Positions 1-3,000 of a DNA stretch of 64,000 bases are shown one piece after another. Numbering within the stretch: position 1 is the stretch's first letter; the number at the start of each line of letters is the position of its first letter. Origin of the DNA: Escherichia coli (GTDB lineage Bacteria > Pseudomonadota > Gammaproteobacteria > Enterobacterales > Enterobacteriaceae); assembly GCF_003334385.1 (NCBI RefSeq), contig NZ_QOWN01000005.1, one strand, 5' to 3'. A program made the position numbers.

Positions 1-3000
1 TTACCGGGCATTAATCGACGAAGTTAACGTCTGGGTTCTGCCGGAAATTGCCGACGAGCCAGCCGGAGGGCTGATGCTAAAAGGTCCACAGGGCGAGGAA
101 AAAGAGATTGAAAGCCGCCTGGAGGAAGGTTGCTACTATTTACTGTTCGACAGCCGCACCCATCGCGGGGCGAATCAGCAAGTCAGGGACTGGGTAAGCT
201 ATGTGCTTTCTCCAACTAATCTGGTCTATTTCGCTGAGGAACAGTACCAGCAACTGTGGTTCCCGGCTTATGGACTGCTCCCCCGTTGGCACCATGCCCG
301 CACCATAAAGAGCGAAAAACCGGCTGGCCTGGAAAGCCTCACCCTAACCTTTTATCAGGATCACAGTGAGCATCGGGTGATTGCCGGGATCATGCAGCAG
401 ATTCTGGCAAGTCACCAGGTCACGCTGAAAATCAAAGAGATCGACTACGATCAGTGGCATACAGGAGAGATCGAAAGTGATATCTGGCTAAACAGCGCCA
501 ACTTTACCCTGCCGCTGGACTTCTCTGTTTTCGCACATTTATGCGAAGTGCCACTGCTACAACATTGCATTCCCATTGACTGGCAAGCCGACGCTGCTCG
601 CTGGCGCAATGGCGAGATGAATCTGGCGAACTGGTGCCAGCAACTGGTCGCCAGCAAAGCGATGGTGCCATTATTGCACCACTGGCTGATCATTCAGGGG
701 CAACGCAGTATGCGCGGCCTGCGCATGAATACCCTCGGCTGGTTCGATTTTAAATCAGCGTGGTTTGCGCCACCGGATCCATGATTGCTGGTTGATAACA
801 AAATCACTACACTAACGCCGTTCTCAACGGGGTGCCACGCGTACGCGTGCGCTGAGAAAATACCCGTCGAACCTGATCCGGATAACGCCGGCGAAGGGAT
901 TTGAGGCTCCTTCTCAAGTCCTTTGCCACTCTTTTTTGAGGTGCAAAGTGTTAAAAAAATGTCTGCCCCTGCTGTTGCTGTGCACAGCGCCCGTTTTCGC
1001 TAAACCCGTTCTGACTGTTTATACCTACGATTCCTTCGCCGCCGACTGGGGGCCTGGTCCGGTGGTTAAAAAAGCCTTTGAAGCCGACTGTAATTGCGAA
1101 CTGAAACTGGTGGCGCTGGAAGATGGCGTTTCGCTTCTCAACCGTCTACGGATGGAAGGCAAAAACAGTAAAACCGATGTGGTGCTGGGGCTGGATAACA
1201 ACCTGTTAGACGCCGCCAGTAAAACCGGACTGTTTGCCAAAAGCGGTGTGGCAGCGGATGCCGTTAACGTTCCCGGCGGCTGGAATAATGACACTTTCGT
1301 ACCGTTTGATTATGGCTACTTCGCCTTCGTTTATGACAAGAACAAACTGAAAAACCCGCCACAAAGCCTGAAAGAACTGGTTGAGAGCGATCAAAACTGG
1401 CGGGTGATTTATCAGGATCCGCGCACCAGTACACCGGGGCTGGGTCTGTTGCTATGGATGCAAAAAGTCTATGGCGATGACGCCCCACAAGCCTGGCAGA
1501 AACTGGCGAAGAAAACGGTCACGGTCACCAAAGGCTGGAGCGAAGCCTACGGCCTGTTTTTAAAAGGTGAAAGCGATCTGGTACTGAGTTACACCACCTC
1601 TCCGGCTTATCACATTCTCGAAGAGAAGAAAGATAACTACGCCGCCGCGAACTTCAGCGAAGGTCACTATCTGCAAGTGGAAGTCGCCGCCCGCACCGCT
1701 GCCAGCAAGCAGCCGGAGCTGGCGCAAAAATTCCTCCAGTTTATGGTTTCTCCGGCTTTCCAGAATGCGATCCCAACCGGCAACTGGATGTATCCGGTGG
1801 CAAACGTCACGCTGCCTGCCGGTTTTGAAAAATTGACCAAACCCGCAACCACGTTGGAGTTCACGCCAGCCGAAGTGGCGGCACAACGTCAGGCATGGAT
1901 TAGCGAATGGCAACGCGCCGTCAGCCGTTAATTCCCGGCTGGTTAATTCCAGGTGTAAGCGCCACCACGCTGGTGGTAGCGGTTGCGCTGGCGGCGTTTC
2001 TCGCCCTGTGGTGGAACGCGCCGCAGGATGACTGGGTGGCAGTCTGGCAGGACAGCTATCTGTGGCATGTGGTGCGCTTCTCCTTCTGGCAGGCGTTTCT
2101 CTCGGCACTGCTCTCTGTCATACCCGCGATATTCCTCGCCCGCGCGCTCTATCGCAGGCGCTTTCCGGGTCGGCTGGCGCTGTTGCGTCTGTGTGCAATG
2201 ACCTTGATCCTCCCGGTGTTGGTCGCTGTTTTCGGCATTCTTAGCGTCTATGGTCGCCAGGGCTGGCTGGCAACACTCTGCCAATCGCTCGGTCTGGAGT
2301 GGACCTTTTCGCCCTACGGCCTGCAAGGTATTTTGCTGGCCCATGTGTTTTTTAATCTGCCGATGGCGAGCCGCTTATTACTCCAGGCACTGGAAAACAT
2401 CCCCGGCGAACAGCGTCAACTTGCCGCCCAGCTTGGGATGCGTAGCTGGCATTTTTTCCGCTTCGTCGAATGGCCGTGGTTACGGCGACAAATCCCGCCG
2501 GTTGCTGCGCTTATCTTTATGCTCTGTTTCGCCAGCTTCGCCACCGTGCTATCGCTGGGGGGCGGTCCGCAGGCGACCACTATCGAGCTGGCAATCTATC
2601 AGGCGCTGAGTTACGACTACGATCCTGCCCGCGCGGCAATGCTGGCGCTGCTCCAGATGGTGTGCTGCCTCGGGCTGGTGCTGTTGAGTCAGCGATTGAG
2701 TAAGGCCATTGCGCCCGGCACCACGCTGCTGCAAGGCTGGCGCGACCCGGACGATCGTCTGCATAGCCGCATTTGCGACACGGTGTTAATTGTGCTGGCG
2801 CTGCTGCTGTTGCTGCCACCGTTACTGGCGGTGATCGTCGATGGGGTAAATCGCCAGTTGCCGGAAGTGCTGGCACAACCGGTGCTGTGGCAGGCGCTGT
2901 GGACCTCGTTGCGTATTGCGCTGGCGGCAGGTGTATTGTGCGTAGTGCTGACCATGATGCTGCTATGGAGCAGTCGCGAACTGCGGGCGCGGCAGAAAAT

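Follow-up and report, generated by a model that had tools for sequence, protein, structure and literature searches.

The TPP riboswitch of the thiBPQ leader in a non-K-12 Escherichia coli: aptamer, expression platform and conservation

Three classic thiamine pyrophosphate (TPP) riboswitches are known in Escherichia coli, those of thiC, thiM and thiB. The thiM riboswitch, whose aptamer has been crystallised, belongs to the same aptamer family as that of thiB and also sequesters the Shine-Dalgarno (SD) sequence on TPP binding; it acts on translation and through Rho within the open reading frame (ORF), and its mRNA-level effect, like that of thiB, apparently depends on part of the coding sequence. 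The two differ in context (the thiMD salvage kinases versus an ATP-binding cassette (ABC) importer) and in the sequence of the expression platform. The thiC riboswitch has the same ligand, the same aptamer family and the same pause-aided cotranscriptional sensing (PMC11487190), but it is larger and under dual translational and Rho control, with the Rho site inside the riboswitch (PMC11487190, PMC5499598). Gram-positive riboswitches of the terminator type, such as those of the Bacillus tenA and thiC leaders, have the same aptamer architecture and end in an intrinsic terminator. The element analyzed here lies in the sgrR-thiB spacer of a 64,000-nucleotide stretch of E. coli contig NZ_QOWN01000005.1 (assembly GCF_003334385.1); this whole stretch is called the window. 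The element is almost certainly the known TPP riboswitch of the thiBPQ (tbpA-thiP-thiQ) leader, a translational OFF switch. In contrast to the Gram-positive type, no terminator was found and the output is ribosome access. A feature of thiB is that the linker strand that invades P1 has exactly the same sequence as the 5' strand of P1 (CUCAA, 823-827 and 913-917).

This riboswitch is already known: it is annotated in RefSeq, its mechanism has been dissected in several papers, and it is also called the small RNA (sRNA) gene sroA. The window comes from a strain other than K-12; its identity to MG1655 is about 99.7%, and the two sequences first diverge at 1173, inside thiB. Over the segment 700-1100 the window and E. 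coli K-12 MG1655 agree completely (100% identity). The K-12 thiB riboswitch (RF00059/sroA) and the element in the window are the same, without any difference in the riboswitch, and the numbering of both principal papers maps base for base. Nucleotide 1 of Berman is window position 818, which makes G17 G834 and ends the 142-nt construct at 959, 12 nt into thiB. Nucleotide 1 of Grondin is window position 820, so that G35 is G854, G121 is G940 and U130 is U949. The 700-1100 stretch is present in 5400 of 5426 complete E. coli genomes.

The dependence on TPP, the block of translation and the function of the linker are established by published experiments. In a thiB reporter, TPP repression was lost in binding-site mutants such as G17C (G834), a weakened sequestering stem abolished the TPP response, and deletion or randomization of nucleotides 95-99 (window 912-916) locked the switch OFF (PMC10578472). 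Mutations favoring either P1 or the antisequestering stem are reported to shift the switch in the expected direction (PMC10578472). The thiB promoter itself is unresponsive to TPP; G35C (G854) abolishes regulation, expression is lost with G121C (G940, in the SD sequence), and U130A (U949, in the GUG) eliminates translation (PMC11487190). In toeprint assays TPP is reported to prevent 30S binding (PMC11487190). Single-molecule Förster resonance energy transfer and RNase H probing have been published for this exact RNA (PMC10578472, PMC11487190).

A scan with the RF00059 covariance model matched 818-917 on the plus strand, which carries all features below unless otherwise marked. The match spans the full model (positions 1-105 of 105) and scores 65.9 bits versus a gathering score of 54.3, with E = 1e-10 over both strands of the window and 6.5e-13 in 700-1100; it is the only RF00059 match in the 64 kb. 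The element is a member of this family. The original prediction, made from the raw sequence, had named a TPP riboswitch here, and both the scan and the published TPP repression of thiB by this leader (PMC10578472, PMC11487190) bear it out. All four of the THI-element blocks that it quoted were located: GGGGTGCC at 829-836, GCTGAGA at 851-857, ACCTGATCCGGATAACGCC at 871-889 and GGGA at 896-899. A pattern of the first three blocks in this order, with the spacers left free, has a single match in the window; 100 dinucleotide-preserving shuffles gave no match. The ligand-contact motif CUGAGA, the pyrimidine sensor in J3/2, is at 852-857, and the pyrophosphate-sensor motif ACCUGAUC...GG.UAA..CC.GCG.AGGGA is matched by ACCUGAUCCGGAUAACGCCGGCGAAGGGA at 871-899. 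That the motif blocks are a chance resemblance without function is scarcely conceivable, given the E value, the empty shuffles, and the retention of the element, its expression platform and its thiB context in at least 33 enterobacterial species. A second Rfam candidate, MIR8139 at 893-926, was rejected as a chance hit (17.5 bits versus a gathering score of 90, E = 0.47).

The element is on the same strand as thiB, and the end of the match at 917 is 31 nt before the GUG at 948. It had been placed correctly in the sgrR-thiB spacer, between the sgrR stop codon (TGA, 782-784) and GUG 948, with sgrR on one side and thiB-thiP-thiQ on the other. Its description as one of the known E. coli TPP riboswitches agrees with the identity to K-12 and with the RefSeq feature, which has the same coordinates as the match. 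The remark that ORF-only annotation readily overlooks such an element holds in principle, but the Prokaryotic Genome Annotation Pipeline (PGAP) annotates a TPP riboswitch at 818-917 in every E. coli record inspected.

The Rfam alignment places the aptamer proper at 822-906, closed by P1 (U822.G906, C823-G905, U824-A904, C825-G903, A826-U902 and A827-U901). P2 is formed by 828-831 and 833 with 860 and 863-866. The P3 hairpin, at 834-852, has 7 bp, a bulged C850 and a GUAC loop, and is followed by J3/2 with its pyrimidine-sensor motif. P4 pairs 872-874 with 895-897, and P5, the pyrophosphate-sensor arm, pairs 878-881 with 888-891. The three-way junction architecture can be formed, since all of the listed P1-P5 pairs are standard; G875 opposite A894, at the edge of the P4 internal loop, is non-standard and was not counted as a pair. 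The optional P3a stem of RF00059 is absent, with 10 model columns deleted in what is known to be a variable region. A plain minimum free energy (MFE) fold of 818-917 misses the aptamer fold (z = -1.5), but this is not evidence against a riboswitch because the junction depends on the ligand and on tertiary contacts. The interval originally predicted, 826-905, covers the aptamer and ends at the last Watson-Crick pair of P1; its start, however, falls 3-4 nt inside the 5' strand of P1 (first nucleotide 822/823), and it omits the expression platform (907-950). The functional unit runs to the start codon at 948.

The linker occupies 907-920 and holds CUCAA at 913-917. In the ligand-free ON state this strand takes part in the anti-P1 (antisequestering) hairpin at 898-920, in which 898-905 pair with 913-920 around a loop at 906-912; the helix is extendable to 890-905 with 913-927. 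In the TPP-bound OFF state the SD-sequestering hairpin is formed at 921-948 by CUUUGC (921-926) with GCAAAG (943-948) and CUC (929-931) with GAG (938-940). The upper part can also adopt another register, in which C927 is bulged, A928 pairs with U942 and C929 with G941. The hairpin encloses the thiB SD sequence GAGG (938-941), which is 6 nt before the GUG and is GAGG or AGGA in orthologues, together with G948. P1 and anti-P1 are mutually exclusive because both use 901-905.

Energetics were computed on the RNA from 818 to 959. The ligand-free MFE structure (-48.4 kcal/mol) contains anti-P1 and not P1, and anti-P1 is also present in the centroid. With aptamer helices P1-P5 enforced, the energy is -37.6 kcal/mol and the aptamer coexists with the sequestering hairpin. 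The extended anti-P1 fold (890-905/913-927) has an energy of -47.2 kcal/mol and takes the 5' strand of the sequestering stem. Positions 943-948 are unpaired in 0-1% of the ensemble with the aptamer enforced versus about 15-50% of the free ensemble.

When the published experiments are mapped onto the window, transcription starts at about 818-820 from a promoter with the -10 element TACACT, and the nascent aptamer (822-906) binds TPP, so that P1 (822-827/901-906) is stabilized. With the 3' strand of P1 occupied, CUCAA 913-917 remains free and the hairpin at 921-948 can form, burying the SD GAGG and the G of the GUG and blocking 30S binding. Without TPP, CUCAA takes the place of the identical P1 5' strand (823-827), pairs with UUGAG 901-905 and so gives anti-P1 at 898-920. 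This helix would then extend into 921-927 and take the 5' strand of the sequestering stem, leaving thiB translatable; the extension is the putative step that frees the SD sequence. The choice falls mainly during transcription. Published sensing is cotranscriptional, with pauses at nucleotides 104, 117 and 136, which map to window positions 923, 936 and 955 (PMC11487190). Lowered translation would be followed by lower thiBPQ mRNA.

For comparison with relatives, leaders were collected by a plain-DNA pattern scan of a species-level genome collection, anchored only in the aptamer core. The scan gave at least 120 loci, many of them in unrelated phyla; at least 38 have a ThiB homologue directly downstream, and at least 33 of these are enterobacterial. 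Among the enterobacterial orthologues (at least 33) the linkage of riboswitch and thiB is kept at a ThiB identity of 66-91%. Common to their leaders are UUUGAG, a loop of variable length (5 to about 45 nt), CUCA(A/G), CCUUUGC, a stretch that varies, an SD sequence of the AGG type and GCAAAGUG. In the enterobacterial leaders listed, CUCA(A/G) forms a conserved island, while the remainder of the linker varies. The alignment comprises 30 sequences; four leaders whose P3 inserts measure 74-143 nt were excluded from it. In this alignment 97.5% of cells are able to pair in the OFF structure (aptamer plus sequestering stem) versus 28-50% when slid, and 89.6% in anti-P1 versus 30-65% when slid. The lower sequestering stem is conserved in 29-30 of the 30 leaders. 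In an alignment-free test on isolated segments, the linker pairs with all five nucleotides of the P1 3' strand in 26 of 34 cases, compared with 11% when linkers were shuffled.

Within the orthologue set P1, P2, P4 and P5 are invariant or almost so, and two-sided changes outside P3 are found only at 928/942 (A-U to G-C, in three leaders) and 929/941 (in one leader). P3 has 32 distinct sequences in 34 leaders, ranges from 10 to 143 nt, and folds as a hairpin in all of them; as judged from the aligned leaders, covariation appears clear only in this helix. Within E. coli, polymorphisms are confined to loops: the divergent alleles, at about 96% identity across 401 nt, have aptamer substitutions only at 841-843, in the P3 loop, and their only change in the expression platform is at 936, in the U-rich loop.

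Individual leaders depart from the common form. In L087:1-173 the P1 3' strand is UUGGGG versus UUUGAG, so that U824-A904 becomes a U.G wobble, and the linker reads CCACCAA versus CUCAA, which makes the corresponding anti-P1 pair G-C in place of A-U. No other candidate for a compensatory change in anti-P1 was found. The very long P3 inserts (74-143 nt, compared with a P3 of 19 nt in E. coli) have up to 43 predicted pairs and z scores down to -9.9. They are found at L008:9738-10015, L064:4015-4245, L110:6466-6745 and L116:2268-2490, in Citrobacter werkmanii, Kluyvera genomosp. 1 and two other enterobacterial genomes. Outside the Proteobacteria, the aptamer-core pattern also precedes distant ThiB homologues (29-35% identity) at L037 and L057 (both Thermus), L093, L035 (a metagenome-assembled genome of Bacillota) and L083. 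The pairing of a TPP riboswitch with thiB is therefore not confined to enterobacteria.

Several observations weigh against the switching mechanism proposed above, or limit the support it receives from these comparisons. Folding reproduces the choice between P1 and anti-P1 but gives only a partial opening of the SD sequence: the 3-bp CUC/GAG helix remains about 99% paired whether the ensemble is free or has anti-P1 enforced, and in the modelled ON ensembles it is the lower sequestering stem alone that loosens. Because the modelled opening is partial, the basis for the SD-freeing step is the published experiments together with the extended anti-P1 fold, which is nearly isoenergetic. The P2 3' strand, P4 and P5 lie inside the search pattern, and the invariance of these helices is partly imposed. 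In the covariation counts on the 30 leaders anti-P1 does not rise above the shuffle controls, and the comparative support for P1 and anti-P1, as far as the alignment indicates, is conservation and not compensatory change. A strict sigma-70 consensus scan of 600-1100 gave no promoter; the promoter was inferred from a conserved -10 element and the published +1 positions.

Many Gram-positive TPP riboswitches act through an intrinsic terminator, and transcription attenuation of this kind might be suggested for thiB by the run of six U residues at 932-937 and by the hairpin at 921-948 that follows the aptamer. The U run, however, sits in the loop of that hairpin and not behind a GC-rich stem, and what comes next after the hairpin is GUGUUAAAAAAA. 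A terminator scan of 600-1100 returned zero terminator-like sites, and single-round in vitro transcription yielded only the full-length product, with no TPP-dependent termination (PMC10578472). An intrinsic terminator is thus a very improbable explanation of the switch.

A second alternative to the translational OFF switch is that the dominant output is at the mRNA level, TPP triggering Rho termination or RNase E decay in early thiB, with the translational block only a trigger or side effect. TPP represses translational lacZ fusions 2.3- to 3.9-fold and transcriptional fusions with 11-12 thiB codons 1.6- to 3.9-fold, and a start-codon mutant is still repressed about 2.4-fold (PMC11487190). The termination score of thiB by chromatin immunoprecipitation and quantitative PCR in a rho R66S mutant is 3.0 (Bastet et al. 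2017, PMC5499598), compared with a Rho score of 12 for thiC (PMC11487190, PMC5499598). Bicyclomycin, on the other hand, has no effect on TPP repression of a construct with four thiB codons, and in vitro transcription gave only full-length RNA (PMC10578472). The empty terminator scan points the same way, and the authors of the 2024 study call translation the primary control while leaving Rho versus RNase E open (PMC11487190). A dominant mRNA-level output is possible but rather unlikely. The effect on mRNA, which is reported but disputed, is best seen as an added layer, secondary to the translational block.

Stable aptamer fragments are frequent by-products of riboswitch leaders, which speaks against the reading of this leader as also a gene for a stable trans-acting sRNA. 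According to that reading SroA (sYJ20), of about 93-100 nt and with the same start, would have targets unrelated to thiamine transport. Northern blots of Salmonella show a discrete leader RNA of about 100 nt, whose first report, under the name SroA, was in E. coli; deletion leads to a subtle defect in survival of tigecycline that is complemented by a plasmid copy (PMC3511261). The targets are TargetRNA predictions only, none of them validated, and the same paper notes that the phenotypes could stem from altered tbpA expression (PMC3511261). A separate role for SroA in trans is improbable. The 3' end of SroA would fall near 910-920, in the anti-P1 hairpin of the riboswitch.

The RefSeq order of features is sgrR, 'TPP riboswitch' (818-917), thiB, thiP and thiQ (PGAP). 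The spacer to thiB begins after the sgrR stop. The -10 element of the thiBPQ promoter, TACACT, is at 808-813; the published +1 positions map to 818-820, 5-7 nt downstream of it. Each of the 33 enterobacterial thiB leaders among the matches listed has TACAAT, TACACT or TAGAAT at this place, 8-9 nt ahead of P1. A candidate -35 element, TTGCTG at 785-790, is 17 nt before the -10; it is weak, is proposed from sequence, and is poorly conserved, being common only to the Citrobacter-type leaders L008 and L121, while most other genera have CTTTCG. The start region at 818-820, mapped from published numbering, is common to the thiB mRNA and to the SroA of about 100 nt. In Salmonella, 5' rapid amplification of cDNA ends placed the start 129 nt before the GUG, at about window position 819 (PMC3511261). 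The thiB leader is compact, with 130 nt from +1 (818) to the GUG. The candidate -35 starts 1 nt past the sgrR stop, and no terminator-like site is present between sgrR and thiB (784-948). The sgrR stop is directly upstream of the promoter region in most orthologous leaders as well, and transcripts reading through from sgrR would also carry the riboswitch.

The first gene, thiB (tbpA), encodes the periplasmic thiamine/TPP-binding protein and extends from 948 to 1931, with its GUG start at 948-950, according to RefSeq annotation of a near-identical sequence. The start sequence GCAAAGUG is invariant or nearly so in the 30 leaders. A mechanical ORF call begins at TTG 936; this start was rejected in favor of GUG 948 on the basis of orthologue conservation and of the U130A mutation (window 949), which kills translation. 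The ORF calls and RefSeq place thiP, the permease of the ABC importer, at 1907-3517 and thiQ, its ATPase, at 3501-4199. The reading frames of thiB, thiP and thiQ overlap, and the three genes therefore form one operon.

Several further features were noted elsewhere in the window. The araA-araD spacer contains an 85-bp tandem array at 9599-10034 (5.1 copies, 97% matches), four units of which score as RF02564 naRNA4, of the repetitive extragenic palindromic (REP)/bacterial interspersed mosaic element type; the array has two more copies (170 bp) than MG1655. In the caiE-caiF spacer, a 131-nt segment at 41834-41964 replaces 8 nt of MG1655 and holds an RF02564 naRNA4 match at 41874-41944 on the minus strand (70.7 bits), and is therefore a REP-like element present in some strains and absent from others. 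Downstream of it, 41965-50295 (caiF-carBA-dapB-rihC) is 98.25% identical to MG1655, as against 99.7-99.96% upstream, and what looks like the boundary of a recombination patch would lie at the REP-like insertion. A perfect match to the sRNA ES003 (RF02750, 87.4 bits) is at 47120-47172 on the minus strand, upstream of carA in the carA-dapB spacer. A strong RF01794 sok antitoxin match at 62980-63132 on the plus strand (122.4 bits) presumably marks the chromosomal hokC/mokC/sokC type I toxin-antitoxin locus.

The region directly upstream of the thiBPQ promoter varies within the species. In about 1047 of 5400 E. coli genomes, including O157:H7, some avian pathogenic E. coli and others, the match to the window breaks just after the sgrR stop (782/783). 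In the sole record inspected, O157:H7 F6667 (L002:1997-3000), about 1 kb with the type III secretion system effector gene espY2, on the opposite strand, lies between sgrR and the riboswitch. In the alleles with the espY2 insert, homology resumes at 783, 2 nt before the candidate -35, so that this hexamer is retained. Since homology extends only from 783, these strains keep about 35 nt of native sequence upstream of +1 and lose sgrR read-through.

The case is one in which a true structured RNA was recognized from raw sequence and borne out by tools, and its value is that of a sanity check. Two observations are mildly new. Across the Enterobacterales CUCA(A/G) is conserved, though Berman 2023 called the linker 'nonconserved', and this conservation fits the role that has been shown for it. 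The other is the espY2 island upstream of the thiB promoter in about one fifth of E. coli genomes. That SroA has a genuine trans role beyond thiBPQ, and also that the espY2 island alters thiBPQ promoter strength or cuts sgrR read-through, is, taken jointly, improbable. If true, an effect of the espY2 island would mean lineage-specific regulation of thiamine uptake.

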